A program made the translations under genes and the position numbers. 64,000 bases of DNA from a virus: positions 1 through 64,000 of the IMG/VR virus record IMGVR_UViG_3300044730_002015; one strand, given 5' to 3'. Numbering within the stretch: the first letter of the stretch is position 1; each line of letters begins with the position of its first letter. This document shows positions 22,043 through 61,170 of the stretch, piece after piece. The notes beneath the pieces were generated by a model. That model worked only from the letters and a program-made list of their open reading frames with translations. It made no database searches and was not told the DNA's origin.

Positions 22043-22101
22043 GTTGGTCCTCAAAGTAAAGTTGTGCTATTACTTAAGAACTCTACAGCAGTGGCGAAAA
22101 T

Positions 22102-34591: not shown

Positions 34592-34654
34592 TTGAATTCT
34601 CCTTTGTGTTGTGCTCCTGCACAAGACTATTTACAATAAACTGCGCGGTTTATT

Positions 34655-41947: not shown

Positions 41948-42180
41948 TTGTTGTGTTGTTTTTTTAAAATGTGCAACATCCGTTGCTTTTCCCATTCTTC
42001 TTCGCCAGTGAATTTTGGCAAATTTTCATAGCGTTCATCTATAAAACACTTGATGTCATACAGATCTTTTTTGATATGGCTGGCGGTGAATCCGTCGTTG
42101 TAGGGACTGGCTATTTCGGCCATCATGCGACTGAGATCCAACCACACACGATTTTTATCCCAATCTATCTTATAGCCCAT
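41944..42180 (-). CDS. hypothetical protein
   Basis: small ORF coupled to its neighbours. Confidence 0.65.
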   Translation of the reverse strand: MGYKIDWDKNRVWLDLSRMMAEIASPYNDGFTASHIKKDLYDIKCFIDERYENLPKFTGEEEWEKQRMLHILKKQHNK

Positions 42181-44562: not shown

Positions 44563-45006
44563 TTATAAATCACCTGGCTGACGATTTTCTGAGTACCATG
44601 CTTGGAATTCGCCACCAGGATAACGGTTCTTGAGTTTTTCAATATTTTCAGCTATGACATCATTGGGGTTGAGGTTGAGTGCTCGGCAGGCATTGACCCA
44701 GTACCACATGATATCACCTAATTCGCGTTTCATGTGATATAGATTCACTTCATCCAGGTTCTTGCCTTGGAAAAAGATCTTCTTGGGGATTTCACAAAAT
44801 TCGCCAGATTCTGCTGCCAGTCCCAAACAGGCTGTGAGCAGCAGCGAAACGTTCACATCTGGGCCGTGTCTGGGACCGGTGTCATCAAATGTTTCATAGT
44901 TGCCATCCACACGATCCAGTCGGTTCATGAAAGTGGTCAAATCATTGGATTCGGCGCTGGTCACTTGCCGTACAAATTCTGAATACTTGTCAAGATCAAT
45001 CTGCAT
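44563..45006 (-). CDS. MazG-like nucleoside triphosphate pyrophosphohydrolase
   Basis: GLAAESGEFCEIPKK...RELGDIMWY...NIEKLKNRYP. Confidence 0.88.
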   Translation of the reverse strand: MQIDLDKYSEFVRQVTSAESNDLTTFMNRLDRVDGNYETFDDTGPRHGPDVNVSLLLTACLGLAAESGEFCEIPKKIFFQGKNLDEVNLYHMKRELGDIMWYWVNACRALNLNPNDVIAENIEKLKNRYPGGEFQAWYSENRQPGDL

Positions 45007-45084: not shown

Positions 45085-46332
45085 TTAAGGAATATTCCAG
45101 GAAGTGCTGCCGGTTATGGTGTGGCGCACATACGCTCCGGGATTGTCAGTGATCACCGGCCCAGCTGGGCTAAATGACCCGCGTTGGGTACCACCTGGAT
45201 ATTGTAGCACTACCACACCCGATCCACCGGATCCACCTAATCCTCCCCCTGTGTTCACGGAAGGTCGGGTAGCCGCGGGGCTGGGCCCAGGACCTCGGCT
45301 ATTACCTGATCCACCTCCACCTCCACCGGTGTTGGCTGTACCTGAGGTGGCTGGCGCACTCAGTCTATCTGATAAGTTGGTAGGAGTTGAACCAAAAAGT
45401 GCCCCGGAACCGCCCGCTCCGCCACCACCTAATCCGCCGGCACCTCCTTGGTAGCCTTGGCGAGTGGGCGCGGCACCGCCTCCGCCACCTCCACCACCGT
45501 AATAGGAGCCGGTCAAAGGAGAAAAGAAACCACGTCCACCAAAACCGCCTTCGTTGACAAATGACGGCGGATTATAACGACCGCCCCCGCCTGCTCCCGG
45601 CCTAGGCGATGTTGTATTACTTGCACCTCCGCCACCCCCACCGCTGGTCATTGGAAGCCAATACCAACTGGTTGGTTGGCTTGGAGGAAAAGAACTTATT
45701 TGAACTCTTGGAGCTACCCCACCTGGGCCACCGGGATTTCCACCAGGTGCACCGATGCGCGAATTTCCTGCTACAGAATTACTTGCTGGATAGGTCGGGC
45801 TGCGTATTGTAGCAGGCCAGAATTGAGGCGTAGGCGGCCTTTGTATTGATGACGAAACTCCGCCACCCCCGCCGCTACTTGTTGGAATGAACTGGGGTTG
45901 GTTAATTGCTCCTGGAATGCCTTTGCTGGTATTAGAACTTAAAGTTCCATTGGTTCCCCAACCACGACCACCTCCTCCTCCTCCGCCATAAGCAACCAAT
46001 GATGTGCCAACAAAAGTATTTGACCCCGGAGATCCGTCGGTTAAAAGAGCAGGCGAGGCCGGATCAGATGTTTGTGAACCGCCCAAGCCACCAGCACCAA
46101 TGGTTATGGCCACCGATCCCGGACCAGCAAAATTTAACACACCTGTGACAACTCCACCACCACCACCACCACCGCCCCCGCGCTGGCCACCACCACCACC
46201 GCCACCAACCATTAGATAAGTGACATCTGCAGGACTAGGACTAGGACTAGGACTAGGCGAAGGTGGAGCCGGTACAGGCTCCCCGCCGATGAATATCGAA
46301 GTACCTTTAATTTTTACCTTGTTTAATTTCAT
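45085..46332 (-). CDS. glycine-rich virion protein (Pro/Ser-rich loops)
   Basis: YLMVGGGGGGG start motif, many poly-Gly tracts, GGSGVVVLQY...HTIT end. Confidence 0.75.
   Translation of the reverse strand: MKLNKVKIKGTSIFIGGEPVPAPPSPSPSPSPSPADVTYLMVGGGGGGGQRGGGGGGGGGVVTGVLNFAGPGSVAITIGAGGLGGSQTSDPASPALLTDGSPGSNTFVGTSLVAYGGGGGGGRGWGTNGTLSSNTSKGIPGAINQPQFIPTSSGGGGGVSSSIQRPPTPQFWPATIRSPTYPASNSVAGNSRIGAPGGNPGGPGGVAPRVQISSFPPSQPTSWYWLPMTSGGGGGGASNTTSPRPGAGGGGRYNPPSFVNEGGFGGRGFFSPLTGSYYGGGGGGGGAAPTRQGYQGGAGGLGGGGAGGSGALFGSTPTNLSDRLSAPATSGTANTGGGGGGSGNSRGPGPSPAATRPSVNTGGGLGGSGGSGVVVLQYPGGTQRGSFSPAGPVITDNPGAYVRHTITGSTSWNIP
46231..46257. repeat. (AGGACT)4.5 tandem repeat encoding SPSPSPSP
   Basis: read directly from the sequence. 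Confidence 0.85.
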
Positions 46333-46338
46333 ATTCGT

Positions 46339-46638
46339 TTATGATATACTTGTGACAGTGAAAGTACCAGGTGATGTAAAGGTATGATACGTATAACCGC
46401 CTGCACTGGTAATTGTTCCATCTGTGGCTTTGGTACTACCAGGGTATCTAACTATCACTGTACCCGAACCCCCAGACGCACCCGAAGTGGGCGTAGTACC
46501 AATTCCGCCACCGCCACCACCGCCACCAGCGCCATCATAGGCTCCACCGCCGGCAACCACAATATAATCTATTGCAAGATGTGGTTCGTCTATGTTGGTG
46601 ACGTTGAAATTTACTAGATTCATTCCTTGGATAATCAT
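46339..46638 (-). CDS. miniature glycine-rich paralogue (internally deleted)
   Basis: DYIVVAGGG N-motif joined directly to the GGSGTVIVRY...GGYTYHTFT C-motif. Confidence 0.65.
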   Translation of the reverse strand: MIIQGMNLVNFNVTNIDEPHLAIDYIVVAGGGAYDGAGGGGGGGGIGTTPTSGASGGSGTVIVRYPGSTKATDGTITSAGGYTYHTFTSPGTFTVTSIS

Positions 46639-46698
46639 ATGCCTATTCTATAATATACCTTATTTATTGCTTATAAACCCAGGGAAGATTTGTAGGAA

Positions 46699-46730
46699 AA
46701 TCTGCCCTAGCCAATATGGCAAGGCAGATT
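46699..46730 (-). terminator. hairpin, possible terminator after the sulfation cassette
   Basis: aatctgcc/ggcagatt outer stem with gcca/tggc inner stem; short U-tract. Confidence 0.45.
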
Positions 46731-46756: not shown

Positions 46757-47590
46757 CTACTCTAGGCCCATCTCGCGGCGTATTTTTGTGGCCGAAATAG
46801 CGTGTGTGGCTTCGTCGAATGACTCTTGCTCGATTCGATAGCCTACATCACGTCCGTAGGTGATGTTCACTATGTTGGGCACCAGGATGATTTCGTACTG
46901 TCCTTGATAAACAGGATCTAGATCACGGCGTATAAGTGATTTGACCTGCTCGGCAGCAAAAGGATTGGAGCCTTGCCAGCCCTGGCAGTCACGGATCATG
47001 ATTGCAACCTGACCGGTCTTGGCTATGGCACGCTCAAACAAGGCCCTATGGCCCGCATGCCAAGGCTGCCAGCGACCCAGCATCTGCACAGTTTCTCGCT
47101 GCCAGTCGAACGTGGGCCTGCGACGGTTTTCCAAGATATGGCTGCCCACGAACTCTGCCCACTTTTCTGCTGCCTGTTCAGTGATGCGGAAGTCGTAGAC
47201 TTCGGGTGGGGTGAAAACTTTGTTGGTGTCTTCAAAGCGACCTTTTTCAATGGTGTCAATCCATATGGTCCAATCGGCCTTGAAGTTGTTGCGCATCTCG
47301 GGCAAGGGTGCCACGAAATCCACTATCACAAAATCATTCAAGAATGAATCTGCTAACTCGCGCATACGCAGACTCTGGCGTATGCGTCCTTCGTGTGAGA
47401 AATCCCAGTCATTGTATTTTTTGCGCACATCGTCCGCGTTAATCCATTTGACCTGCGCACGGCTAGCACTGATGTTTTCAGCGTCGGTGTGATACAGATC
47501 GCTGTGTTGTTCCAAATAAGTTTTGAGTCGTTCAGCAAAGTAGGTCTTGCCCGCACCGGGCAAGCCCATGATCAAGATTCTCTGTGCCAT
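46757..47590 (-). CDS. fusion of an APS-kinase (CysC)-like P-loop domain and a HIGH nucleotidyltransferase (ATP-sulfurylase-like) domain
   Basis: MGLPGAGKT, NADDVR...DWDFSHEGRIRQ, VDFVAP (CysC-like); GRWQPWHAGH, YGRDVG, ISATKIR (HIGH/Sat-like). Confidence 0.75.
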   Translation of the reverse strand: MAQRILIMGLPGAGKTYFAERLKTYLEQHSDLYHTDAENISASRAQVKWINADDVRKKYNDWDFSHEGRIRQSLRMRELADSFLNDFVIVDFVAPLPEMRNNFKADWTIWIDTIEKGRFEDTNKVFTPPEVYDFRITEQAAEKWAEFVGSHILENRRRPTFDWQRETVQMLGRWQPWHAGHRALFERAIAKTGQVAIMIRDCQGWQGSNPFAAEQVKSLIRRDLDPVYQGQYEIILVPNIVNITYGRDVGYRIEQESFDEATHAISATKIRREMGLE

Positions 47591-47605
47591 GTTGAGTTGG
47601 GTTGA

Positions 47606-47812
47606 TTAGTTTACGATTTGACCTGCAGAGTCTGCAGTTTGATCATTGGCTGCATCTGTTGCTTCTGCTGGAGCCTGCTCAGGGATCTGAGGACGCACCT
47701 GCTCAATGATGTCACGGATCACTGGGCCAAAGCCAGTTTTGATCGGCAGTTCATTGAGTGCTGTCAAGATAGCATTCAGTTGATCTACGGTTAATTTTAC
47801 GGTTACTTCCAT
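47606..47812 (-). CDS. small acidic hypothetical protein
   Basis: 68 aa; AAGGAG RBS; TAAGTA at 47844-47839. Confidence 0.7.
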   Translation of the reverse strand: MEVTVKLTVDQLNAILTALNELPIKTGFGPVIRDIIEQVRPQIPEQAPAEATDAANDQTADSAGQIVN

Positions 47813-47845
47813 GGACTTCTCCTTGTGGTATAATACTGTACTTAG

Positions 47846-48784
47846 TTAGATAAAAGTAGGTCCCGAATCTTTTGCGTCATCGATCACTTCGCCGAAGAAA
47901 GTCTGTTTGGGCCGAGTGCTGTTACGTGGATGATCTAGATTCTCTTCGTTCAATGGCACATCATCTATTTCACGCCAGAATTCTTGGCCGGCCACTGCAT
48001 CTAATATTTCTTTAGGCAGCACATCTTCGGGATAACTGGCAGTGGATTTCAGCACTTTTCTCACAGCGTGCATGTCTTCAAAGCCATAAACATCTGCATC
48101 ATTTTCCTGATGTATGTTCACTAGATTTTCAAAGTCATGCTCATAGTATGTTTCACCCAAGAAGTCATAAACTTTTTGCATGGTCTCCCTAGGATCAGTG
48201 ACCAAATCTCGATATTCGATAAAGTGTATGTTGGCACGATATCCTTCGGCAAGGGCTTTTTTCAAGCCATCAAAGGACTGGCCCAAGATGCCAGGACCGG
48301 CTATGGCCCTGCAGCGATTCTCGTCATTGAGGGCTATGCCCGATCGTATCAGCATCTGATCCACAAAGTTTATGCGCTCGTTTACTATGTGCGGATTGCG
48401 ATGTATCATGGATATAAAAGACGCCAAGATCTCTGCCACATCACGCACAGGGTACAGCACTTTAGGATGCTCAATACCAAAGTATCCAGGAATGTAGTTC
48501 ATGCGATTGACCCAACTGCGATTCTTTTCAAACACCACAGGTCGGTCTGTGTCAGCATAATACTGATCTATCACAGAAGCGATAAGTTTTTGTCCAAAAT
48601 CATATTTGGGAAATGCCAAAAACAACTCGTCTTGGTTCAGTGCTTCTTCCAACAGCAGCATGGTTGGCACCACTGGTGAACTGGGTCCTGAATAAAATCT
48701 GGGATTCTGATTCAGTATGGCCGACAGCATGGTGCTGCCACTGCGTGGCAGGCCCGACATAAAATAATACTTTTTCTTGGTCAT
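47846..48784 (-). CDS. PAPS-dependent sulfotransferase
   Basis: 5'-PSB loop SGLPRSGSTML, 3'-PB motif VRDVAEILAS, EYRDLVTDP...VYDFLG. Confidence 0.88.
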   Translation of the reverse strand: MTKKKYYFMSGLPRSGSTMLSAILNQNPRFYSGPSSPVVPTMLLLEEALNQDELFLAFPKYDFGQKLIASVIDQYYADTDRPVVFEKNRSWVNRMNYIPGYFGIEHPKVLYPVRDVAEILASFISMIHRNPHIVNERINFVDQMLIRSGIALNDENRCRAIAGPGILGQSFDGLKKALAEGYRANIHFIEYRDLVTDPRETMQKVYDFLGETYYEHDFENLVNIHQENDADVYGFEDMHAVRKVLKSTASYPEDVLPKEILDAVAGQEFWREIDDVPLNEENLDHPRNSTRPKQTFFGEVIDDAKDSGPTFI

Positions 48785-49692
48785 GATTGTCCTTGTAATT
48801 GGTCGGTGGCTGCGATAATTTCTTCAACATTGAAGATCTCTTGATCTTCAGTAAAGGGATACTCGCCTTCGTTGCCGTTGAAGTCAAAGTCAAACAAGTA
48901 ACTGTGCGGCAGTTTGAATTCGTAGGGTATCTTGGTGCAGATGTTGGTGTGCAGGTCATAGCCAAACACCTTGGGACTGGTGCCATTCCACAACACCACA
49001 GAAGGCCGTCTCAGTGCTGCCGCTGTGTGTTGCAAACAACTGTCAATCAGGATGTTTTTTTGGCTGTGCAGCAACAGGCTAAACAGTTCCATGGTGCTGA
49101 GGAATTTCTGTGGGGTAGCAAACACATGGTGAGCACCCTTGAGTTTGGGTGAGTTTATTTTGGTCACTTGATAAATGGTGTAGTCTTTGCGATAGTGATC
49201 TACCAGAGCCTGTCCTATGTTTTCCGGCATGTCTCGGGTCCAGGAATAGGCCTTGGCGTCAGTGGTCATCATTCCACCATTGGTATGCAGTACCATGATG
49301 GGTTTGGTGCCGCGTATCCAATACTTCCTGCTGAGATCCTGTTGCAACTTGTTGAGTTTGACCACAGGAGTTTCGCCTTTGTATTCTATGCCATACATCT
49401 TGCACCAGGTCTGTACCAATGGTAATTTTTGGTGTATATGATCTGTGGTAAAGTAAGGTTCATGATGGAATATCAGAGAATCTTGATCTTTGATGTAATT
49501 TTGATAAAAGTAACTTGTACCACCAATGGTGTACACACGGTCTACAAAATCTAGATTGGTAAACACATCGGGATAGGCGCACACCACTATGAGCTTGCGA
49601 TCTGGATGATTGTTCTTGATGGTACGGGCCACGGCTGTGGCTGCCACGTGTTTGCCTAAACCACCTTGTACATGGAAAATGCTGTATTTCAT
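48781..49692 (-). CDS. GT9 (heptosyltransferase-like) glycosyltransferase
   Basis: GGLGKHVAATAVARTIKNNHPDRKLIV and LIDSCLQHTAAALRRPSVVLW. Confidence 0.75.
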   Translation of the reverse strand: MKYSIFHVQGGLGKHVAATAVARTIKNNHPDRKLIVVCAYPDVFTNLDFVDRVYTIGGTSYFYQNYIKDQDSLIFHHEPYFTTDHIHQKLPLVQTWCKMYGIEYKGETPVVKLNKLQQDLSRKYWIRGTKPIMVLHTNGGMMTTDAKAYSWTRDMPENIGQALVDHYRKDYTIYQVTKINSPKLKGAHHVFATPQKFLSTMELFSLLLHSQKNILIDSCLQHTAAALRRPSVVLWNGTSPKVFGYDLHTNICTKIPYEFKLPHSYLFDFDFNGNEGEYPFTEDQEIFNVEEIIAATDQLQGQS

Positions 49693-51002
49693 TTGAGTCC
49701 TTGTGTATGTCTTTCCAACACAGTAAAGCCATTGTTGTTAGTTTTATGTATGCGGAAGCGCCAGTGCGGATTTTTTATTAGGAATTCAATTATGGCAGTG
49801 AGCAGGCCTTGGCGATCACGACCATCTTCGCCGCACAGGCCAAAGGTGTAAGTGTCATGGAATGCTATGTATCGTCGGGCCTTGTTGCCATGCAAGGCCA
49901 ATTCTTTCTGTAACTGTTCGTAGGTATGCAAGGTGTCAATAAACAGCAAATCCATGGGTTCGACTTCTATATCCAGCACATTGGCTTTGATATATTGAAC
50001 AGACTTTCCCTGTGCCTGGGCTTTGAGGAATAGTTCGCGCACCTTAGGATGCAACTCAATATCAAAACTCAACAATTCAACATCGCTGGCCAAGAATGCA
50101 CGAGTACTCACGCCGGTCCTGACTCCAAACTCCACCACTGTCTTGCACTCTTGGGCCAACTCGTATAGTATGTGTACATTTTCATTGATGTCGCTCACAT
50201 TGGTACGAGCCCAGTGATATTCCTGATCGAATACCGTGGCATTTGTGTTATTGAGCTTTTTTGCCAGCCGCTGCCTACTGTACATATTAATCATGTTCTG
50301 GGGAATATCCCAGTTTTTGCTGTTTTTAAAATGTCCGTAGGCCAAGAGATTTTTACTGTCTAGTTCTATGCGGCAGTTGATCTCACTGTCGGGATCATTG
50401 AACTTGGTCAGCGTTTCTGAGATGGTGCCTTTTATGCGGTTGCTGTTGATGGCAAACACACGTTTGGCTCGTTGTGCAAAATAGTCGTCACCGTACCATA
50501 CCTGATACAAACTGGGAATCTCTTGATAAGATTGTTTCATCATGAACATACAGATACCAAATGCCCAGGCCTGGCCACCAATGGGCTTGGTGTCATCGTA
50601 ATTTAATCTAACAATTTCTTCTGCTGTGTCAATGACATCGTCTATGCGATAATTGTTTTGTCTGCCGCGTAGATTCACACCAATGAGATCGCCGGCTTGA
50701 AATGGAAAATCGCTGACCATGTCAATCACGTCGGCTGATACAACAATGTCATCGTTTATGATGCCCAGGACATGTGACTGAGCCCGATAGTAACCTTCGT
50801 TCCAGGCAGGGTTCACAAAGATATTTTTATTGTATGATACTAACTCTACTTTCACATGGTTCAGCACGGACCATTGGGGTCTAGATTTACGATTGTTATC
50901 AATCACTATGATCTTGGCTATTTTGTCGTGATTGGCGTAGATTTCTAGCGCCTGATCAAAGTCCTTGACCATCCACATGGTGGGAATCACTACATCTATC
51001 AT
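49689..51002 (-). CDS. GT2-like glycosyltransferase fused to a class I methyltransferase (Methyltransf_24-like)
   Basis: VVIPT, IVIDN, IINDDI, YGDD; then VVEFGVRTGVST, DLLFIDTLHTYE, IAFHD. Confidence 0.8.
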   Translation of the reverse strand: MIDVVIPTMWMVKDFDQALEIYANHDKIAKIIVIDNNRKSRPQWSVLNHVKVELVSYNKNIFVNPAWNEGYYRAQSHVLGIINDDIVVSADVIDMVSDFPFQAGDLIGVNLRGRQNNYRIDDVIDTAEEIVRLNYDDTKPIGGQAWAFGICMFMMKQSYQEIPSLYQVWYGDDYFAQRAKRVFAINSNRIKGTISETLTKFNDPDSEINCRIELDSKNLLAYGHFKNSKNWDIPQNMINMYSRQRLAKKLNNTNATVFDQEYHWARTNVSDINENVHILYELAQECKTVVEFGVRTGVSTRAFLASDVELLSFDIELHPKVRELFLKAQAQGKSVQYIKANVLDIEVEPMDLLFIDTLHTYEQLQKELALHGNKARRYIAFHDTYTFGLCGEDGRDRQGLLTAIIEFLIKNPHWRFRIHKTNNNGFTVLERHTQGLK

Positions 51003-51658
51003 AGTTTTTTGTCTTGTTTGAAATCGCCTTTGTACACTTTGTTGCCAATGTGAGAAACTGTGTAGTGTGGATTGACCCAGATATCATAGCCCAGTTCCAA
51101 TATCTTTCGGCTGAGCGTGATATCTTCTCCAACAAATCCACCATTCAATGAACTGTATTCGCAGATGTTGCGCAATTTTTTGCCACGGAATTCTAGTTCT
51201 GGATTGCTGGTCCAAAGATCCTCAACTACTTTGCGAGACATTTTGAGAAAACCAGTGCCGGTTTTTTGTACTTTGAAATAACCATCTGCGGGATCTTTTT
51301 CCATGTTTTGTGGGATCCAGATGTTGTAGGTCAAGGGTTCTTTGTCGCCTTTGTTGACTACTGGTACTGTGATCACATCCTTGTTGGACTTGACAATGTC
51401 AATCAAAACCTGCGCGGTCCAGTACTCATCATCGTCGATGAATACCATGGCGTCATAACCATCTTTGTAGGCAAGATTAAACAGTTCATTCCTGGCCATG
51501 GGCAAGATGCTTTCGTTGGCCAAAAATATGCAGCGTATGTCAATGTTGTGCGCCAGGCCCAGTTTGATTGATTCGCAGAGACTATGCACAAAATAGGCAT
51601 CTACCTTTTGATCCAGGCAGGGAGTTGCTACCAAAACTCGTTTTGTTGTTTTTTCCAT
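50999..51658 (-). CDS. GT-A fold glycosyltransferase-like protein
   Basis: VLVATP, ESILPMARN, VFIDDD, TGTGFL, GEDITLS. Confidence 0.75.
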   Translation of the reverse strand: MEKTTKRVLVATPCLDQKVDAYFVHSLCESIKLGLAHNIDIRCIFLANESILPMARNELFNLAYKDGYDAMVFIDDDEYWTAQVLIDIVKSNKDVITVPVVNKGDKEPLTYNIWIPQNMEKDPADGYFKVQKTGTGFLKMSRKVVEDLWTSNPELEFRGKKLRNICEYSSLNGGFVGEDITLSRKILELGYDIWVNPHYTVSHIGNKVYKGDFKQDKKL

Positions 51659-51721
51659 AAAAAAAGGATCCTTGGGATCCTGGTATACGACCCAGGGTTA
51701 ATATTATGTATCAACCCTGGG
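51659..51721 (-). promoter_or_regulatory. two tandem hairpins plus U7 immediately before the GT cassette
   Basis: cccagggtt/aaccctggg (51691-51721) and aggatcc/ggatcct (51665-51681), then T7 abutting ATG 51658. Confidence 0.5.
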
Positions 51722-51735
51722 CGCGAGTGGAAAAA

Positions 51736-54700
51736 TTATTGGCTTTCTAGTGCTGCTATGCGTGCCTTGAGACTTTCAATTTCTGTGGAAAGTTCATTCA
51801 CAGCATTGACCAATATGGGAACCATGTAATCACTGGTGATCTGCAGTTTGTCGGGATTGTCTGCAGATACCACCACTGGTGAATCGCCTTCTGCGGCCAG
51901 GACGTTTTGAGCACTGAATCCATAGCGTCGTTTGCCATCGGGATCAGTGATACAGCCTGACTCGCGATCTTTGAAACTATACTCAATGGGTTCGATGCTT
52001 TGCAGGAAACCTCGGCCATGTGGCACACGACCATAGATACATTTGTCTCTGCAGTCTGACACAGCAGTCCACGCAATCTGTATCTGAGCACAGGTATGCG
52101 CATTGTTACCCATGATGATACGATTACATTCTGTGGTGATGTTGGCCAAACCAACCGAAGTCAAACCTGTATTACAACCTATGAGAATGTTATTGCAACC
52201 AAAGGAATTGTTACAGCCAGCGTTGGGCCCTATAAAAATGTTATAGCCACCTGATGTATTAAGCTGTCCAGCATATCTACCAATGAATACCGAATTGCAA
52301 CCAAATGTGGTTTTGAAGCCAGCCTTCATACCAATAAAGGTATTGTAGCATCCGCTGACATTGCATTTTCCAGCGCAGAATCCCAGGTAAGAATTGTATC
52401 GACCGAATGTATTACACTGACCGGCCTGGAATCCAATAAAGAGGTTATGGGTACCGGAGACGTTGGCACAGCCAGCCATGTGTCCAATAAAATGATTTCC
52501 GTTACCGGTGGTGTTACAATTGCCAGCTTGGAAGCCCAGAAACACATTATAACTTCCGGTGGAGTTTTTGCGGCCAGCGCCACTACCAATAAAGATGCCA
52601 GTGCCAGTGGTATTGCATACTCCAGCAAGACATCCAATAAAAATATTATCATAACCTTGATTATTTTGACCGGCCTGGGTACCCAGCATGACGGTATATG
52701 AGCCGGTATTATATTCACCTGCTCGCTGTCCTATGTTTACATTACATTTAGAATAATTGCCAGCAGCCATCGAACCGCCGCCGGCATATTGGCCAATACT
52801 GATGTTTACCGTTGTATAGCAACGTCCTGCGAATTTTCCAATGGCAATTGTTCCGCCTGCGTACTGACCCCTAAATGCTGCGCAGTGACCTGCTGCAAAA
52901 AGATCAACACTTTGATTACATTTACCAGCACAAAAACCAAAAATAATGTTATGGCTACCACAAAGTCCATTCATACCACTGCAGCAGAAGAACAGATTAC
53001 AGGTACCAGCACAATATGTTATGGGTCCTGCACCTGCTGCTGCACCATTCACAAACAATCCAGAAGCTGTGACACAAAGTCTTGCTGTACCTGACCCATT
53101 GTCGCCAATGATTACAGTATTGGAGAGGCCGGCTGTTCCCGCCAAACTTGTACCAGCACCAATGATCACATTGCACACACCAGTGGTTACTGCGCACCCT
53201 GCATTGCAACCAATAAAGGTATTTTTAACGCCAGTGGTGTTGCCGTAGCCAGCACATCTGCCAGCGAAGAAGTTGTATGTACCAATGCTATTACAAAAAC
53301 CTGCGGACCTGCCAAGGATAGTATTATCACTGCCGCTGGTACTGTTATAACCAGCACACTGACCAGCCACAAAGTTGTGAGTACCGGTACCGTTACAGTA
53401 ACCAGCCATTCTGCCCATAAAAATATTATAACCACCTGTGGTAGTAAAATTCCCAGCGCAGTTACCAACCATAAAGTTATGACTGGCAGAGGTTTGGCAA
53501 CGTCCCGCATAATAGCCCAATATTGTGTTATAACTACCGGTATTTCTTAATCCTGCTTGTAGCCCCACAAAGAAATTGCCGCTGGCTGTGGTATTATAAA
53601 AACCGGCGCAGTGGCCAAGGAAAACGTTAAAGCTACCAAAGGTGTTGCAAAAACCTGCAGACATACCAATAAAGTTATTGCCGCGTCCGGTGGTGTGATT
53701 AGCACCTGCATTACAACCAATAAACGTATTGCATCTTCCGGTGGTGTTGCAGCAGCCGGCATTGCGTCCTATAAAGACATTGTGACATCCAGCTGTATTG
53801 CGGAAACCAGCACATGCACCGGCAAAGAAGTTGAACTCGCCATAATAACCACCAGCAAAGCCATTGCAGGTACCTGCACAAAAACCTGCAAAAAAGTTGT
53901 TGTTGCCACTACCACCATTGCCCGAAATACAGCTGGTGATGTTTCTTGTGCCACAGGCCACAAATACACTGCTTCCGCCTACAGCGGAACCGTTTACAAA
54001 CAATCCCGAAGCCGTTACGCACAATCTTGCTGTGCCTGACCCATTGTCACCAATGATCACTGTGTTGCTCAACCCAGCTGAGCCTGCCAATGCTGCACCT
54101 GTACCTATGATTACGTTACATATACCTGTGGTTACTGAGCAGCCTGCATCTACTCCTGCCATAACGTTGCAACTACCGCTGTTTAGAAAATAACCTGCAC
54201 CACCGCCTATAAGTACATTCCTTGTTCCAAACGATACATATCGTCCAGCGGCGCCACCGATTAATGTATTAACATCACCCGAAGTTATACTACAACCTGC
54301 GCAGGCTCCAATGACTATGTTATAGGAACCGCTGGCATTTGCTGCACCTCTACCAGCAGTGTCACCAATAAAGATATTTCGACAACCACGAACATGATTA
54401 CATCCAGAATACCTACCAACATAGAGGTTATAGTTGCCAGAGACATTACATTGGCCTGCACAACTGCCCAGGAATATATCATGCGTTCCGAATTCGTTAC
54501 TACGACCAGCAAACTGGCCAACAAAGATGTTATGACTTGTAATTGTGGTAAAGCCAGCACATTGACCAGCGAAGAAATTATGATTTCCACTGCAATTGCC
54601 GGCGCCCGCACAGTTGCCAAAAACTATGTTGTTTGCACCAGTAATATTTTTACATCCCGCACAGGCGCCTATAAAGACATTGTCTGCGCCAGTGGTGTTG

Positions 54701-57030
54701 GCTGAACCCGCACACTGCCCTGCAAAGAAATTGTCTGTGCCAGTGCCGCCATTGCCCGAGATGCAGCTCACGATATTGCGTGTGCCACAAACCAACATGG
54801 CACCACCGCCACCGCCCACCAATGTGCCATTCACATACAGGCCAGTGGCGTTGGCGCACAATCTCGTGGTTCCACCTGCGGAAATGACCACAGTACAGCA
54901 AAGACCTGCGCTACCTGCATAATTACCAATTATAGTGTTCTCAAATCCCGATACTACCGAACATCCAGCACCCAAGCCAATAAAGATATTGCAAGCACCA
55001 GTGGTGTTGCGTCGACCTGCATATGCTCCGATAAATTGATTGTTGCTGCCAATGGTGTTGCAATAACCGGCGCCTCTTCCAATAAAGGTGTTGCAAACAC
55101 CAGTGGTGGTGTATCGACCTGTACTGCAACCCACAAAGAAGTTGTGACAACTGGCACTGGCAACCAAGCAGCCGGCATATTTTCCAATGAATGTATTGTA
55201 TTGGCCTGCGGTGCCGTTGCTGCCACCACCATAGATAACTGTTCCAGAGGAATTGAAAGGCGAGGATAACTGTGATCCATTCACATATAATCCAGTGTCG
55301 TTGATGCACAACCTTGGAAAGCCGTTGGTCCTTTCGCCGATCATTACTATGTTCTGCATGCCTGCTGTGCCAACTAAGCAACTGGCAGCAGACCCAATTA
55401 TGACATTACATACACCTGTTGTTACAGCACAGCCAGCATTGCAACCAATGAATATATTTTTAGCACCAGTGCTGTTACAACAACCTGCATTGGCACCAAC
55501 GAAGATGTTGTTGGTTCCAATCGTGGTCGCAAATCCAGCATAACGACCAATGGCGATGTTACAACTGCCAGAGGTATTTGCGCGGCCAGCACTGACTCCA
55601 ACAAAAAAGTTGTGGCAGCCAAAGGTATTGAAGATGCCAGCAGCACGACCAATCATGGTGTTGTATGTGCCACTGGTGGTGGACTGACCTGCATAGGCTC
55701 CAGCGAAGAAATTGTTGGTACCAGTGGTAATAAAAGAAGCAGCATAACTACCAATAGCTATGTTATGGACACCGGTGGTAATGCAACGTCCACTGTTTTG
55801 ACCTATTAAGACATTGTTTGAGCCAATGGTGTTGCAGCAGCCGGCATTGCGACCAATAAACGTATTAAAGGTGCCGGTGGTGGTGTTGCGACCAGCACAT
55901 GCACCGGCAAAAAAGTTATCTGTGCCAGCTGTGCCCAGTCTGCCGGCATCTTTGCCGATATAGATGTTATTTGTACCAGTGAGATTACAAAAGCCAGCAT
56001 ATTGTCCAAGAAATACGTTGCATGATCCAAAGGTGTTTCTGGCACCAGTACACTCTCCAATGAATACGTTTCTTTGTCCGCTAGCATTGCCAAAGCCTGA
56101 ATCTTTGCCAATAAAGACATTGTAACTGCCAGTGATATTGCAACGTCCAGCCTGGCGACCAATGTAAACGTTGTATTGGCCAATGGTATTCTGGCAACCA
56201 GCTAGTGGTCCAATGAATACATTCTCTTTGCCGGTGGTAGTAGAAAACCCAGCGCAGCCTCCAATAAAAGTATTACAACTACCAACAGTGTTATTTCTAC
56301 CGGCATACAGTCCGATAAAAGTATTTTGACTTCCTGTGTTATTTAGACAGCCAGCGCGGAATCCAATAAATGTGTTATAGCAACCAGTGCTGATGGCACG
56401 TCCGGCGTCTCTACCAATAGATATGTTATCTTTTGCGCCAACGCAGTTCTCTGCGCCTGCCCCGGCATAGGTTCCAATACCGATATTATTGCAAAATCCT
56501 GCTGCGAATCTGCCTGCGGCATATCCAATAAAGACATTGCATGAACCGGTGGTATTGCACTGACCTGCAAAAGCACCTATCATATTGTTGTAACTACCAG
56601 TACTTAAATTAAATCCAGCAGCCCAACCCAAGGCATTGTTATTATTGCCAGTGGTGTTGCACATACCTGCGCAATGACCAGCAAAGAAATTTCTACTGCC
56701 AATGGTGTTGCATTGACCAGCATACTGTCCAATAAAGATATTGCGACTGCCAGTGGTGTTGAATCGACCAGCATATTGGCCCAGGAACGTGTTATAGCAA
56801 CCTGTTGTGGTGCGACCACCAGCCGCGCGGCCGATCATGAGATTGTGACTACCAATGGTCAAGCAAGCACCAGCGTTGGGACTGATCACAGTGTTGTATG
56901 TGCCAGTGGTTAGGGCTGCACCGGCACCGTTGCCAGCAAAAAAGTTGCTGCCAGATTTATTGTAATTGGTTACATTACATAAATTTCTGCTGTCATCTAC
57001 TACTGTGGTTCCTGCGACTTTGATAGCCAT
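51736..57030 (-). CDS. 1764-aa Cys-rich repeat fibre with a C-terminal S74-type intramolecular chaperone
   Basis: dozens of 14-aa NxFxGxxAGxxNTTG repeats (YadA-head-like beta-roll); SDCRDK...YGFSAQ...LVNAVNELSTEIESLK chaperone domain. Confidence 0.85.
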   Translation of the reverse strand: MAIKVAGTTVVDDSRNLCNVTNYNKSGSNFFAGNGAGAALTTGTYNTVISPNAGACLTIGSHNLMIGRAAGGRTTTGCYNTFLGQYAGRFNTTGSRNIFIGQYAGQCNTIGSRNFFAGHCAGMCNTTGNNNNALGWAAGFNLSTGSYNNMIGAFAGQCNTTGSCNVFIGYAAGRFAAGFCNNIGIGTYAGAGAENCVGAKDNISIGRDAGRAISTGCYNTFIGFRAGCLNNTGSQNTFIGLYAGRNNTVGSCNTFIGGCAGFSTTTGKENVFIGPLAGCQNTIGQYNVYIGRQAGRCNITGSYNVFIGKDSGFGNASGQRNVFIGECTGARNTFGSCNVFLGQYAGFCNLTGTNNIYIGKDAGRLGTAGTDNFFAGACAGRNTTTGTFNTFIGRNAGCCNTIGSNNVLIGQNSGRCITTGVHNIAIGSYAASFITTGTNNFFAGAYAGQSTTSGTYNTMIGRAAGIFNTFGCHNFFVGVSAGRANTSGSCNIAIGRYAGFATTIGTNNIFVGANAGCCNSTGAKNIFIGCNAGCAVTTGVCNVIIGSAASCLVGTAGMQNIVMIGERTNGFPRLCINDTGLYVNGSQLSSPFNSSGTVIYGGGSNGTAGQYNTFIGKYAGCLVASASCHNFFVGCSTGRYTTTGVCNTFIGRGAGYCNTIGSNNQFIGAYAGRRNTTGACNIFIGLGAGCSVVSGFENTIIGNYAGSAGLCCTVVISAGGTTRLCANATGLYVNGTLVGGGGGAMLVCGTRNIVSCISGNGGTGTDNFFAGQCAGSANTTGADNVFIGACAGCKNITGANNIVFGNCAGAGNCSGNHNFFAGQCAGFTTITSHNIFVGQFAGRSNEFGTHDIFLGSCAGQCNVSGNYNLYVGRYSGCNHVRGCRNIFIGDTAGRGAANASGSYNIVIGACAGCSITSGDVNTLIGGAAGRYVSFGTRNVLIGGGAGYFLNSGSCNVMAGVDAGCSVTTGICNVIIGTGAALAGSAGLSNTVIIGDNGSGTARLCVTASGLFVNGSAVGGSSVFVACGTRNITSCISGNGGSGNNNFFAGFCAGTCNGFAGGYYGEFNFFAGACAGFRNTAGCHNVFIGRNAGCCNTTGRCNTFIGCNAGANHTTGRGNNFIGMSAGFCNTFGSFNVFLGHCAGFYNTTASGNFFVGLQAGLRNTGSYNTILGYYAGRCQTSASHNFMVGNCAGNFTTTGGYNIFMGRMAGYCNGTGTHNFVAGQCAGYNSTSGSDNTILGRSAGFCNSIGTYNFFAGRCAGYGNTTGVKNTFIGCNAGCAVTTGVCNVIIGAGTSLAGTAGLSNTVIIGDNGSGTARLCVTASGLFVNGAAAGAGPITYCAGTCNLFFCCSGMNGLCGSHNIIFGFCAGKCNQSVDLFAAGHCAAFRGQYAGGTIAIGKFAGRCYTTVNISIGQYAGGGSMAAGNYSKCNVNIGQRAGEYNTGSYTVMLGTQAGQNNQGYDNIFIGCLAGVCNTTGTGIFIGSGAGRKNSTGSYNVFLGFQAGNCNTTGNGNHFIGHMAGCANVSGTHNLFIGFQAGQCNTFGRYNSYLGFCAGKCNVSGCYNTFIGMKAGFKTTFGCNSVFIGRYAGQLNTSGGYNIFIGPNAGCNNSFGCNNILIGCNTGLTSVGLANITTECNRIIMGNNAHTCAQIQIAWTAVSDCRDKCIYGRVPHGRGFLQSIEPIEYSFKDRESGCITDPDGKRRYGFSAQNVLAAEGDSPVVVSADNPDKLQITSDYMVPILVNAVNELSTEIESLKARIAALESQ

Positions 57031-57041
57031 CTTCGTTGTCC

Positions 57042-58889
57042 TTAACTAGGCTTTGTATTTTTCAACTGATCAATCTGTTGCTGCTGTTCTTTGATGGCCT
57101 CGATCAGTATGGCTATCAAAGGCAGATAAGACACTGTCAATCCGCGTTCTTCTGAGTGTACCAACTCGGGTAACACTTGGATTAAATCTTGGGCTATGAT
57201 ACCATAGCTCTTGTTACCAGTTTCTTTCCACTTGAAACTCACGCCCTGTATGCTATTTATTTTGCTCAAGGCCGATTTGATGTTCTTGACATTTTTCTTG
57301 AAATTACGGTCTGAAGAAGTGTTGACATCCGTGGCTGTGAGTGTGCCTGAACTGGGGTTGAATGTGAGTTTGGTTGACGATATGGTGGCAGTGGTCAGCG
57401 AGCCCGAAGTGGCAGTGGCAAACACCGGATAGTAGTTGCTGTTGGTTGTGGTATCATCGGCTATGGTGGCGCCACCGCTGGAAATGCCTGTGAGCTGGCT
57501 GCCGTTGCCCAGTAGATATGAACCAGAAATGTTGCCCGAAGCGTTGATATTGCCAGTGACTGTCAAGATATTGGCAATATTAGCACCGTGGCTGAGTGCC
57601 ATGGTGTTGCTGGTACTGTTGTAGAAGAATGTGATGTTGCCACCAGAGGAGATATTGCCAATCTGTAGGCCGGCACCGTTAAGATCTGACAAAGTGGCAT
57701 TAGCATTGGCAGCAACGATGATGTCTTTGTCTGCTAAGAATATATTTGCAACATTGATTTCAGTTGTGGTACCTTCAACCCGCAGGTTACCTAGTATTAC
57801 TGCATTATGGGTAACCTGAAGATTACCAGCATTGACATTTGCAGAAACATTAAGATACTGACCGCTTACATTACCAAGAGCATTCACGTTGCCAGGATTG
57901 ACGTTGCCGGCAAGATTTATATCAGTTAATACTTGCCCTGTGAGATTGACGTCTTTGACATCCAACAGTGTGCCAACATTAAGATTATCAGTTGTTATAA
58001 GAGAAGTTACTGCAATATTACCAGCGGCGATATTACCTGTAGTAACAATATTGCTGGTCAATGAACCACTGGCCAAGTAGTTGGCTACTATTGCGTTGCT
58101 ATAACCTGCGGGTAGACCTGTTATAAATGCACCGTTGCCCAATAGATATGCAGCTGTTAGGTTACCTGTGGTACTGAAGCCACCAGCGGTAATGTTGGCG
58201 CTGGCTGTGACCGTGCCCGATCCATCCAGTTCCACTGTGGTGACTGCATCACCTCTTTTTACTCTTATCACTCCGCCCGTGCCACCCGAGAATGAATCTA
58301 AGGATGTGACATTTGCCGCGCCACCTATGATAGCTCCGCTGGTGATTAGGTTGCCACCAGTGATATTGCCCGAGGTGTCAATGTTGCCTGTAAGGGTGGT
58401 ACCTTCGGTGACCACTGTGTTGCCTGCAACTGTCAATTGTCCGTCTGCAATGCCCACCGATACGCCACCAATATAAATTGTGTTGTTGGACACATACAAA
58501 CTGCGCCATTGCAGTGTGTTAGAGCCAAGATCTGTGGTAGCATTGGATTGTGGTAAAACGTAAGCGGCAGTGATGTTGGCAGTGGTGATGATGTTGCCGG
58601 TCAATGAAACCAAATTGCCGGTATATGTGGGCAGGTATGCAGCCACATTTGAGTTGCTGTAGGTGCTGCCGCTCACAATGCCAGTCAAGAAAGCACCGTT
58701 GCCTAATATATATGTTCCCGAAATGTTACCGCTGCTGGTAATATTGCCTGTGGCAGTAATTACCCCAGTGACAGCGATGTTACCCGAATTGGCTATGCCA
58801 CTTTGGCTTAGGTCAAGCAAACTTCCCACAGGGATTTCTTGAATCTGTGAACTAGTAGTGTTAGCGATCAGTGGAAAATAATTGGCCAT
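57042..58889 (-). CDS. tail fibre with a C-terminal S74-type chaperone
   Basis: GNIT repeats; SDRNFKKN...FKWK...YGIIAQ...LIEAIKEQQ. Confidence 0.85.
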   Translation of the reverse strand: MANYFPLIANTTSSQIQEIPVGSLLDLSQSGIANSGNIAVTGVITATGNITSSGNISGTYILGNGAFLTGIVSGSTYSNSNVAAYLPTYTGNLVSLTGNIITTANITAAYVLPQSNATTDLGSNTLQWRSLYVSNNTIYIGGVSVGIADGQLTVAGNTVVTEGTTLTGNIDTSGNITGGNLITSGAIIGGAANVTSLDSFSGGTGGVIRVKRGDAVTTVELDGSGTVTASANITAGGFSTTGNLTAAYLLGNGAFITGLPAGYSNAIVANYLASGSLTSNIVTTGNIAAGNIAVTSLITTDNLNVGTLLDVKDVNLTGQVLTDINLAGNVNPGNVNALGNVSGQYLNVSANVNAGNLQVTHNAVILGNLRVEGTTTEINVANIFLADKDIIVAANANATLSDLNGAGLQIGNISSGGNITFFYNSTSNTMALSHGANIANILTVTGNINASGNISGSYLLGNGSQLTGISSGGATIADDTTTNSNYYPVFATATSGSLTTATISSTKLTFNPSSGTLTATDVNTSSDRNFKKNVKNIKSALSKINSIQGVSFKWKETGNKSYGIIAQDLIQVLPELVHSEERGLTVSYLPLIAILIEAIKEQQQQIDQLKNTKPS

Positions 58890-59371: not shown

Positions 59372-60277
59372 TCAAGCAGAACTAACCTGGAAAGTGCCCG
59401 ATGAGGTAAAAGTATGCACTGTGTTGCCGCCCACTGTGGATACGGTACCACCGGTGGCCTTTTGCGAGCCAACATAACTGAAGATCACTATGCCCGGACC
59501 ACCTGTTCCCGCTGCTGCAGGAGAGCCACCCAAGCCACCACCACCTCCGCCCCCGGTGTTGACATTGCCCGGAGTTGACGCAAATGCAGGTGCCAATCCA
59601 CCAGCGCATCCGCCTTTGCCACCACCGCCTAGTCCGCCTGATGAAAATGAAAAAAGTTGTGTAGGAAGTTGGGTAGCGGCACCTCCGCCACCACCACCTC
59701 CGTAGTAAGTTGATGTGCCGGTGATACTGCTGGTAGATCCAGCACCACCTGGGCCACCCAGACGGGCGCCGGTGGTAGCGGGCGATGCTGTACCAGCCGA
59801 ACCCGCTGCGCCGATGGGTCCTCCTCCTCCGCCTCCGCCGCCAGCTCCATCAGTGTTGGGCAAAAATCGTTGTCCAGCACCGCCGGGGCCACCAAACGTG
59901 CCAGTACCAACGGTAGCATCTGCGTTGTAACCGCCTTGCCCGCCGCCACCTGCTCCCGGTGTGGCCGCTGTAGCTCCAGCAAATGAACTGGCACCACCGC
60001 CACCACCGCCCAAAGAACTCACTGTGACACCGCTACCTGTGATATCAGTGTTGGCTCCGCGTGTGCTGGCGCCGCCACCTCCGCCAACTGTGACCACATA
60101 AGGTCCCGTGGACACAGTGGTCACACCTTCTAGCACACGGCCTCCGCCACCTCCGCCACCTTGGTCATCGCCGCCACCGCCACCTGCACCTACCGCGAGA
60201 TATCGTACAGTAAAACTCTGTGGAAAGTACTGGTTGTAAAGCGTGGTATTACTAATGGTTATGCCAGTGAATAACAT
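59372..60277 (-). CDS. glycine-rich virion protein
   Basis: YLAVGAGGGGG...GGPGIVIFSY...HTFTSSGTF. Confidence 0.75.
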   Translation of the reverse strand: MLFTGITISNTTLYNQYFPQSFTVRYLAVGAGGGGGDDQGGGGGGGRVLEGVTTVSTGPYVVTVGGGGGASTRGANTDITGSGVTVSSLGGGGGGASSFAGATAATPGAGGGGQGGYNADATVGTGTFGGPGGAGQRFLPNTDGAGGGGGGGGPIGAAGSAGTASPATTGARLGGPGGAGSTSSITGTSTYYGGGGGGGAATQLPTQLFSFSSGGLGGGGKGGCAGGLAPAFASTPGNVNTGGGGGGGLGGSPAAAGTGGPGIVIFSYVGSQKATGGTVSTVGGNTVHTFTSSGTFQVSSA

Positions 60278-60284
60278 AATTTTC

Positions 60285-61157
60285 CTATACGGTAGAGGTC
60301 AGTGTAAATGTACCAGGTGCTGTGAATGTATGATATGTATAGCCACCTGAACTGGTAATGACACCACCTGTACCCTTGGTTCCGCCCTCGTATCTAACTA
60401 TGACTGTGCCGGGTCCTCCTGTGCCACCTGCATTGGGTGAAGTGCCTGTTCCGCCAGCACCACCTCCACCACCGCCACGACCGGGTGTGGCTGCAACCAC
60501 ACCACCACCGCTGCTGCCCCCGGTACCGGCACCTGATGTGGGTGTACCTCCCCCGATGCCACCTGAACCCGCGGAAGATCCTCCCCCACCGCCAGCACCA
60601 TAGATCACACCATCTACCCAGGTATAGCCTGCGCCACCGTCGCCGCCAGGGCCTGTGCCGCTGCCGCCCACACCTGGAGATCCTGCACCACCAGCACCAC
60701 CGCCACCGCCACCGCCGTTACGAGCACTGACTGCTCCGGGATTGCCCTGTGGGGGACTTGTGGGTGGTGTGTTGCCTGAGCCGGCTGTTTGACTGGCATA
60801 AGCACTACCAGCACCGGCACCACCGCCCGATGCTCCCGATGTGCCTGAACTGTTTTGGCTGCCACCACCGCCACCACCGGCTGCCGTCAATCCAAAACCT
60901 GTGCTGCTGTCACCAGAGCCTCCAGAGGATGGAGAGGTTGTCCGGCCAGCACCGCCGGTGCCCACAGTGACAGGATATGCAGCCGGAGCCGAAGATACCT
61001 GAGTTGATCCGGTTAGCACACCACCACCGCCACCACCGCCGGCAGCATCAAATCCACCGCCTCCACCAGCACCAACCACTATGTATTCTAATAACACATT
61101 GGGTACAAAGGTATTAATCATTGTGGCATTTTGTACAGTGGTTTCTGAAATTATCAT
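60285..61157 (-). CDS. glycine-rich virion protein
   Basis: EYIVVGAGGGGG...GGPGTVIVRY...GGYTYHTFT; probable start MIISE. Confidence 0.75.
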   Translation of the reverse strand: MIISETTVQNATMINTFVPNVLLEYIVVGAGGGGGFDAAGGGGGGGVLTGSTQVSSAPAAYPVTVGTGGAGRTTSPSSGGSGDSSTGFGLTAAGGGGGGSQNSSGTSGASGGGAGAGSAYASQTAGSGNTPPTSPPQGNPGAVSARNGGGGGGGAGGAGSPGVGGSGTGPGGDGGAGYTWVDGVIYGAGGGGGSSAGSGGIGGGTPTSGAGTGGSSGGGVVAATPGRGGGGGGAGGTGTSPNAGGTGGPGTVIVRYEGGTKGTGGVITSSGGYTYHTFTAPGTFTLTSTV

Positions 61158-61170
61158 GTTGGGTCCTTGA

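Follow-up and report, generated by a model that had tools for sequence, protein, structure and literature searches.

Positions 46757-57030 of the DNA analysed here carry a very large fibre gene and, downstream of it, a cassette with predicted genes for three glycosyltransferases (GT), a methyltransferase, a sulfotransferase and a kinase/nucleotidyltransferase fusion. The window, as we call the whole stretch of 64,000 nucleotides, makes up the beginning (64 kb) of an IMG/VR phage contig of 169.5 kb (record IMGVR_UViG_3300044730_002015; CheckV completeness estimate 48%). We lean, by a small measure, towards reading the cassette as a glycan-tailoring module of the fibre region with an on-site supply of the sulfate donor 3'-phosphoadenosine 5'-phosphosulfate (PAPS), for which the neighbouring fibre would be the most likely acceptor. 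The reading is built from gene order and coupling, family and fold assignments, synteny, domain fusions and phyletic pattern. A short sugar chain would be built by three glycosyltransferases predicted to be soluble (a GT-A, a GT2 and a GT9-like GT-B enzyme); it would be methylated by the S-adenosylmethionine (SAM)-dependent methyltransferase fused to the GT2 and sulfated by the PAPS-dependent sulfotransferase. The donor would be made by the fusion in two predicted steps: the C-terminal mini HxGH domain would adenylate sulfate, giving adenosine 5'-phosphosulfate (APS) and pyrophosphate (PPi) in the reaction ATP + sulfate -> APS + PPi, and PAPS would arise from APS through phosphorylation of its 3'-OH by the N-terminal APS-kinase-like domain. 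The proposed acceptor is the Cys-rich fibre with a 17-residue repeat encoded immediately upstream, with the modification taking place, on this proposal, in the cytoplasm and ahead of assembly. Every gene of this region lies on the minus strand, and the features are the following:

51736-57030, minus strand: repeat fibre of 1764 amino acids (aa), matching PHROG tail spike and virion structural families (E 4e-114 to 2e-85).
51665-51681, minus strand: hairpin with a stem of 7 bp and a loop of 3, followed by TTTTTT, found in the terminator scan.
50999-51658, minus strand: GT-A candidate of 219 aa with a DxD-type IDDDE motif (phrog_1574 E 5e-19; phrog_34859 'glycosyltransferase' E 1.7e-4).
49689-51002, minus strand: GT2-like protein fused to a class I SAM methyltransferase, 437 aa (GT2-like part about residues 1-235, methyltransferase 290-383).
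48781-49692, minus strand: GT9-like GT-B glycosyltransferase of 303 aa, from hhalign to bacterial GT9.
47846-48784, minus strand: PAPS-dependent sulfotransferase of 312 aa (PF13469, PF00685, phrog_27463 E 7e-67).
47606-47812, minus strand: small acidic open reading frame (ORF) of 68 aa with its own AAGGAG ribosome-binding site.
46757-47590, minus strand: kinase/nucleotidyltransferase fusion of 277 aa (kinase 1-158, HxGH domain 164-277).

Order and strand are those that an earlier note on this DNA had described. The same note had the cassette genes ATGA-coupled behind the fibre, which is true of the four enzyme genes, joined through three 4-base overlaps (51002/50999, 49692/49689 and 48784/48781), and not of the fibre itself, separated from them by a spacer of 77 nt. 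The 7-bp hairpin with its T-run lies in this spacer and directly abuts the ATG of the first GT gene, so placed that it looks like a terminator-like or attenuator-like boundary between fibre and cassette. The 68-aa ORF had no family match in Pfam or PHROG and is weakly conserved in one relative (L053).

The assignment of the 312-aa protein as a PAPS-dependent sulfotransferase is secure at the level of sequence. It exceeded the cut-offs of both PF13469 (57.6 bits versus 27, E 2.8e-15) and PF00685 (52.1 bits versus 22, E 7.8e-14), the 5'-phosphosulfate-binding (5'-PSB) loop GLPRSGST and the 3'-phosphate-binding (3'-PB) motif R114...S122 are intact, and across 16 diverse phage homologues residues G11, R14, G16, T18, R114 and S122 hardly vary. 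Its only NCBIfam match was NoeE (E 3.3e-5, far below the cut-off). The best solved relatives by sequence were tyrosylprotein sulfotransferases 1 and 2 (TPST1/2, E 4e-4), PF13469 is the family that holds the TPST-like enzymes, and tyrosine makes up 3.6% of the fibre; the enzyme might then be TPST- or RaxST-like and act on protein tyrosine, for example in the fibre, with the glycosyltransferases working independently. We regard this as improbable, given that the TPST match spans only the generic PAPS-binding loop (residues 7-50) and that the genes for the sulfotransferase and the GT9-like protein share 4 bases and always occur together, so that a sugar acceptor fits better than tyrosine.

The best reading of the 277-aa fusion, from its sequence and predicted structure, is that of a mini PAPS synthase. 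An AlphaFold2 model made with 47 diverse homologues had a predicted local distance difference test (pLDDT) score of 93.4. By Pfam, family profile and predicted fold the N-terminal domain (residues 1-158) appears to be an APS-kinase relative. It passed the cut-off of Pfam APS_kinase PF01583 (28.1 bits versus 21.1), a result that is ambiguous when taken alone because KTI12 passes as well (28.6 versus 22). The profile of the fusion family matched about 20 APS-kinase structures among the solved chains (E 3.6e-15 to 1e-11), with the motifs NADxVR/DGDNxR, DFSxEGRxRQxxR/GFSxEDRxENxRR and DFVxP/SFISP aligned (fusion family/APS kinases). When the model of this domain was compared with known structures, APS kinases came first with Z scores of 17.8 (root-mean-square deviation, rmsd, 2.0 over 140 aligned residues), 17.5, 16.6 and 15.3, followed by gluconate kinase (14.0) and Kti12 (13.6), and the top ~39 Foldseek matches of the fusion model were APS kinases. 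Residues D53, R56, F64, R69, Q72 (in place of N), R75 and the DFVxP motif are conserved in this half, in which the KGLYK lid is not recognisable and the lid is shortened.

The small domain (residues 164-277), folded separately with a pLDDT of 95.5, looks in both sequence and model like a minimal HxGH nucleotidyltransferase of ~110 aa, similar to nicotinamide mononucleotide adenylyltransferase (NMNAT) and phosphopantetheine adenylyltransferase (PPAT), and not like a member of the Sat family. The Pfam search gave no Sat-type PF01747 match in the fusion. The domain carries the NMNAT motifs GRFQPFHxGH and ISxTxxR, and its fold scored Z 10.3 with NMNAT, 10.2 with PPAT and 9.9 with NadM. Among the ATP sulfurylases, that of T. 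thermophilus (1v47) reached Z 8.7 (rmsd 3.3, 115 of 118 residues) and the others 5.3-6.4, all ranking below NMNAT and PPAT; Foldseek gave NMNAT and PPAT, and no sulfurylase, among the matches listed. The likeness to NMNAT is itself partial. The profile match to NadM and archaeal NMNAT (E 1e-7) covers only positions 13-70, that is the ATP-binding first half, the model ends at about residue 136 of NMNATs that are 164-168 aa long, and the NCBIfam NMNAT scores were far below the cut-off (28.6 versus 127). The label of APS-kinase/sulfurylase-like fusion was thus apt for the kinase half, while sulfurylase-like holds only at superfamily level and not for the Sat type.

The architectures found in a set of 2081 fusion homologues speak for PAPS synthesis. 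P0238 combines a canonical full-length CysC (PF01583 E 5.7e-63) with the same small domain (44% identity) in one protein, and in another protein (P0184) the small domain appears in reversed order with the divergent kinase. The fusion of CysC and small domain is chromosomal in a marine alphaproteobacterial single-cell genome, where it lies among genes for glutamate synthase, a POT transporter and an RTX protein. Streamlined marine alphaproteobacteria (0.9-1.6 Mb) with the small domain fused to a canonical CysC are represented by L092 (8001-8933), G014, G020 and G026. Neither Sat nor CysD was found in any of the 25 species genomes of this order (0/25 for each), and the only APS kinases in them were three ORFs, all fused to the small domain, with a fourth copy cut by a contig end. 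A canonical APS kinase without any other source of APS suggests that the fused domain is a sulfate adenylyltransferase; these genomes being incomplete, the pattern of absences supports this idea and does not prove it. Further architectures in the set (P0264, P0154) are the kinase half with an NTP_transferase (sugar-1-phosphate nucleotidyltransferase) domain and a DUF4118 membrane domain ahead of the whole fusion.

Among phages the fusion is conserved at 73-82% identity in at least 600 viral contigs, with homologues in more than 8000 metagenome protein clusters, and its position is at the margin of a hypervariable island. A sulfotransferase gene on the same strand was found within 7 kb of it in 37 of 84 related phage loci, some of which have two or three copies, and the sulfotransferases make up at least 18 clusters that share less than 50% identity. 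A constant fusion beside changing, acceptor-specific sulfotransferases is what a role in donor supply predicts. All 84 loci belong to one lineage (73-82% identity) and these counts are therefore not independent; the adjacency was found again in a distant lineage (L087) whose fusion is 39% identical. For the enzymology of a sulfated and methylated glycan, as the earlier note proposed it, there is evidence from family, fold, domain fusion and neighbourhood, with the reservation that a Sat-type sulfurylase cannot be recognised in the fusion.

The other enzyme labels stand on different footings: sulfotransferase and methyltransferase pass Pfam cut-offs and the GT9-like protein was recognised by profile-profile comparison, while GT-A and GT2 have weak matches only. 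In the family of the 219-aa protein, six of 13 members matched Anp1/GT62 (best 5e-6) and five of 13 Glycos_transf_2 PF00535 (best 1.3e-3), the 219-aa protein itself scoring 0.012 in that comparison. DxD-like motifs are present in both this and the 437-aa protein. The N-terminal half of the latter had no Pfam match, and its nearest Atlas clusters, a lead from a language model, carry PF00535 in 81% and 80% of their members. Its methyltransferase domain (residues 290-383) matched Methyltransf_24 with 28.8 bits versus a cut-off of 26.3. This half is absent from the GT2 homologues of two relatives (L191, 12049-12741; L192, 4941-5633), so the kit is modular and methylation would be optional.

The 303-aa protein fell below the cut-off of Pfam GT9 PF01075 (18 bits versus 22, E 0.0019) and matched NCBIfam heptosyltransferase I at E 0.0016. 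Aligned by hhalign to 11 bacterial GT9 heptosyltransferases, its family reached 90.7% probability (E 1.2e-6, 142 columns); the alignment covers the nucleotide-sugar-binding C-terminal half, including DSxxxHxAAAL...GTSP, and leaves the N-terminal acceptor domain unaligned. The profile of this family found no match among solved chains, and single-sequence searches of solved structures gave only WaaC (E 0.56), with no match to TibC or Aah. No transmembrane segment was predicted in any cassette protein. The description of the cassette as self-contained applies at most to sulfate activation and not to the supply of sugar donors, as the heptose-pathway genes for GmhA (SIS_2) and PfkB-type proteins were not found on the 169-kb contig; since this is only ~48% complete, the missing GmhA, PfkB and ThyA-like genes are no proof of their absence from the phage.

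The ThyA-like genes bear on another possible substrate, DNA. As the phage belongs to the T4 superfamily, its glycosyltransferases could hypermodify phage DNA bases as in T-even phages, with the sulfotransferase tailoring the DNA glycan. This seems very improbable indeed, considering that the cassette is in a fibre island away from the genes of nucleotide metabolism, that no thymidylate-synthase-like hydroxymethylase was found on the same ~48% complete contig, and that we know of no GT9-type enzyme acting as a DNA glycosyltransferase. On the favourable side, a variety of glycans is known to be placed on DNA by virus-encoded glycosyltransferases (Pyle et al. 2024, cited in PMC12619734).

The fibre is linked to the cassette more tightly than by its position in one genome. 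Its 1764 residues include 18% Gly, 11% Asn, 6.2% Cys and 3.6% Tyr, with a repeat period of 17 residues and a C-terminus that is coiled-coil/tail-spike-like; the Pfam search gave no match. Cys accounts for only 0-0.1% of residues in the four other large structural proteins of the window that were checked. The cysteines of the fibre are set in the 17-residue repeat, often as C-N-T-T-G. NxS/T sequons are in excess (49 observed versus 31 expected, z 3.7), from which N-glycosylation cannot be argued because the excess belongs to the repeat consensus and is too weak. A search started from the sulfotransferase found a Cys-rich fibre of the same 17-residue-repeat family upstream and on the same strand in four contigs (G046, G047, G048 and G044), adjoining the cassette in three of them and 10 kb off, with extra GT genes between, in the fourth. 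When the search was started from the C-terminus of the fibre, all four loci retrieved carried GT-A, GT2, GT9-like, sulfotransferase and fusion genes directly downstream. The connection of fibre and cassette is therefore conserved beyond this window, being kept in all assessable relatives (7-8 contigs). A cassette unlinked to fibre genes in relatives was one of the outcomes that the earlier note had named as refuting its proposal, and the proposal is not refuted on this count.

Several observations weigh against the module as we propose it, some of them touching the donor enzyme and others the acceptor. The first Asp of the DGD motif of APS kinases is Asn in the whole fusion family (N51-A-D53). 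The closest folds of the small domain are NMNAT and PPAT, its 'GRD' loop has only G-R, and not the D, as conserved residues, and a profile of the small domain alone, run against solved chains, gave no match to a sulfurylase at E <= 10. The kinase half occurs joined to a sugar-1-phosphate nucleotidyltransferase in the one homologue mentioned above, and the alphaproteobacterial genomes cited above are incomplete single amplified genomes and metagenome-assembled genomes. Furthermore, a complete 383-kb relative keeps the fusion and has no match to PF13469 or PF00685, and the same was found for the complete genomes of Casjensviridae (Xylella phages Sano and Bacata), where the fusion gene overlaps a NADAR/COG3236 gene. 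A fusion kept in complete genomes without a detectable sulfotransferase must have another, or an additional, role there.

These findings feed an alternative that we consider rather unlikely: the fusion would be an APS kinase whose small domain is employed differently (linked to NMN/NAD or ADP-ribose, or regulatory), or an auxiliary gene of sulfur or nucleotide metabolism, the sulfotransferase would use PAPS of the host, and the neighbourhood would only reflect a shared position in a variable island. The NadM and archaeal NMNAT sequences as nearest relatives of the small domain, the coupling with the NADAR gene, the genomes without sulfotransferase and the single lineage behind the 84 close loci are all compatible with it. 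Against it, the likeness to NMNAT ends with the half that binds ATP, and the domain has no counterpart of the C-terminal part with which NMNAT binds its substrate; a canonical CysC fused to this domain in cells without Sat or CysD makes no sense for an NMNAT; and the NadR-type ribosylnicotinamide kinase family (AAA_28) found no match in the fusion protein. The 18 sulfotransferase clusters around one conserved fusion, together with the distant L087, also speak for a mini PAPS synthase. In the relatives without sulfotransferase, two P-loop-like families (55 and 39) were considered as cryptic sulfotransferases and rejected (hhalign 2.9% and 4.9%), and a 237-aa neighbour in L011 matched Sulfotransfer_2 at E 0.02 only.

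As to the acceptor, which could be fibre or capsid in the virion or LPS (lipopolysaccharide) of the host, fibre genes are so frequent in this region that adjacency to one is weak evidence for a substrate, the hairpin with the T-run sits between fibre and cassette, and a GT9-type enzyme together with an HldE-II-like gene would suit work on LPS equally well. GT9 enzymes classically act on the LPS core with ADP-heptose. The same enzymes could accordingly modify a glycan of the host envelope (LPS core or O-antigen, capsule or exopolysaccharide) or a lipid-linked precursor, and the benefit could be that progeny do not stick to debris or that other phages are blocked. The GT9 signature of the 303-aa protein and the HldE-II-like gene within the window would fit, and comparable GT/LPS clusters of large marine cyanomyoviruses were read by their authors as host-surface modification (PMC12801897). 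We nevertheless find this unlikely, and modification of the fibre more likely than remodelling of a host glycan to judge from the gene content, because the enzymes are predicted to be soluble, export or ligase genes are lacking, and the linkage is strict to one fibre family inside a fibre island. Actually, no membrane protein, flippase, polymerase or Gtr-type gene is found in the cassette, which tracks this fibre family in all assessable relatives within a hypervariable island, and exclusion expressed late would gain a lytic T4-like phage little. The superinfection exclusion through LPS remodelling that the earlier note had offered as an option found no specific support, the cassette having neither membrane proteins nor Gtr-, Wzx- or Wzy-type genes.

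In its strongest form, the proposal states that an NMNAT-derived ATP sulfurylase of ~110 residues with a trimmed APS kinase, serving also marine bacteria that lack Sat and CysDN, feeds a sulfated, methylated glycan on the phage's own Cys-rich fibre. We put this forward tentatively, as a possibility with the balance still against it. The module is kin to known phage glycan cassettes and to PAPS synthases, while holding a possibly new enzyme class. Bifunctional PAPS synthases (human PAPSS1/2, PDB 1x6v; that of Aquifex aeolicus, 2gks; the fungal Sat-APS kinase fusions) likewise combine an APS-kinase-type domain with an adenylyltransferase of the HIGH superfamily. Animal PAPSS has the same order, kinase then transferase, and PAPSS1 aligns to both halves of the fusion model over 251 residues. 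The differences are in the transferase, which has ~350-400 aa in PAPS synthases versus ~110 aa in the fusion, where it comes without a PUA-like domain and Sat signature and is nearest to NMNAT/PPAT, and in the kinase, with NAD for DGD and a shortened lid.

A dedicated PAPS supply within a glycan-tailoring cluster is known from rhizobia, in which nodPQ accompany nodH or noeE and NodPQ are homologues of CysDN/CysC. The phage cassette would resemble them in having a private source of activated sulfate beside a carbohydrate sulfotransferase and tailoring enzymes, and differ in that an unrelated mini domain would replace CysDN. Another parallel is given by Aah/AIDA-I and TibC/TibA, where heptosyltransferases of the GT9 fold are encoded beside the repeat adhesin that they heptosylate. 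Here too a soluble GT9-like enzyme is found beside a long protein with a short repeat period, and the HldE-II-like gene of the window could help to make an ADP-sugar; unlike them, the phage enzyme is shorter (303 aa) and without detectable sequence match to TibC in the searches of solved structures. In mycobacteriophages, whose virions are glycosylated (Freeman et al. 2023, as cited in PMC12619734), phage GT genes also adjoin structural genes, and there, as in the present proposal, the modified proteins are those of the virion, made in the cytoplasm. As far as that citing account goes, their glycans were demonstrated on capsid and tail-tube C-termini, with no sulfation or donor synthesis, whereas here the fibre is a candidate target from the genes alone. 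The cyanomyoviruses S-SCSM1, S-SCSM2R, P-SSM2, S-SKS1 and S-SRM01 are similarly T4-like, aquatic and rich in GT genes, and the annotated sulfotransferases of S-SKS1, S-SRM01 and S-SCSM1 share 24-35% identity with the one described here. They differ in having no homologue of the kinase/nucleotidyltransferase fusion, and their clusters were interpreted as modifying the host surface (PMC12801897).

Our literature searches returned no paper on sulfation of phage fibres or on the kinase/nucleotidyltransferase fusion. If the proposal is true, phage virions would have their first example of a sulfated glycan, and the ATP sulfurylases a third, independent class. Abundant freshwater jumbo phages would then use sulfate to give their receptor-binding fibres another charge and chemistry, a modification of which no example is known in phage particles, with a bearing on host range, stickiness to polysaccharides and escape from grazers or defences. 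For sulfate activation, a new and very small solution would be at hand in the gene that makes the donor, with a related form in marine bacteria thought incapable of such activation. Viral 'cysC' is usually scored as an auxiliary gene of sulfur assimilation, and the context found here suggests that many such genes serve sulfation instead.

The source is a real freshwater jumbo phage of the T4 superfamily. Its DNA polymerase is nearest to those of Rak2/Atu_ph07-type jumbo phages of this superfamily (41-48% identity), and the DNA of the cassette region recurs across lake, river and lagoon metagenomes from several studies. The region 44-60 kb is covered by contigs of one independent lake metagenome run with zero differences, so that the arrangement is real and not an assembly chimera. 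Isolated phages gave no megablast match to a 25 kb query, and the distant DNA search only a single short marine match. The T4 late-promoter box TATAAATA was not found within the 64-kb window, in which sigma-70 and terminator scans gave overall counts at chance level. The window also contains a gene for a 755-aa ATP-dependent protease/AAA+ protein (27022-29289, phrog_4871 E 1e-235) and one for a PstS-like phosphate-binding protein (33581-34624).

The following features flank the cassette or lie elsewhere in the window:

57042-58889, minus strand: upstream fibre of 615 aa with a C-terminal Peptidase_S74 intramolecular-chaperone domain (PF13884 E 3.6e-16); many PHROG tail-fibre families match.
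46697-46729, minus strand: weak terminator-like hairpin read by eye, with a 7-bp stem, a long loop and TTTT, ~30 nt past the stop of the fusion.
45085-46638, minus strand: two Gly-rich genes of 99 and 415 aa (Gly_rich_2 E 4.8e-10; phrog_2295, phrog_863 'tail fiber assembly').
41477-41995, minus strand: HldE-domain-II/TagD-like nucleotidyltransferase of 172 aa (TIGR02199 rfaE_dom_II E 1.7e-22, TIGR01518 E 1.2e-14, both below cut-off).
21155-22054, minus strand: second GT-A candidate of 299 aa (phrog_1574 E 6.9e-38, the same PHROG as the 219-aa protein).

The downstream hairpin was missed by the terminator scan as its loop is above the limit of the scan. The two Gly-rich genes are probably virion or fibre-associated, and Gly-rich genes of one PHROG are found on both flanks, those of the far side at 59372-61220. 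With these and the Peptidase_S74 fibre, the cassette is indeed bordered on both sides by virion fibre or Gly-rich genes, and the second GT-A and the HldE-II/TagD-like gene that had been pointed out elsewhere in the window are real by their profile matches. The 172-aa nucleotidyltransferase is a possible activating enzyme for a nucleotide sugar of the ADP-heptose type, going by its sequence; in three relatives (L017, L018 and L062) the gene directly preceding the fusion is its homologue (79-80% identity). Near the fusion, the window also has a MazG gene (44563-45006).

Other gene neighbourhoods of the fusion are varied. In the 56-kb genomes of Sano (L088, 15406-16143) and Bacata (L089) the fusion homologues are 35-40% identical and have MazG and an annotated cysteine dioxygenase upstream. 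In the complete 383-kb relative (L037, 9467-12005) the fusion has immediately downstream a gene for TctA (E 6.6e-91) and a weakly TctC-like one whose product starts with what resembles a signal peptide. Such a transporter pair is unusual in phages. Beyond it lie two P-loop-like genes of no known family. Four islands of another sublineage (L015, L016, L051 and L058) in which no sulfotransferase was detected have five or six radical SAM/SPASM paralogues and a NodU/CmcH-type carbamoyltransferase directly upstream of the fusion. Finally, the islands upstream of the fusion in L070-L075, L025, L028, L033 and L044 contain two to eight tandem paralogues of ~380 aa with RCC1 repeats (beta-propeller), and such arrays often flank a fused sulfotransferase of 590 aa.

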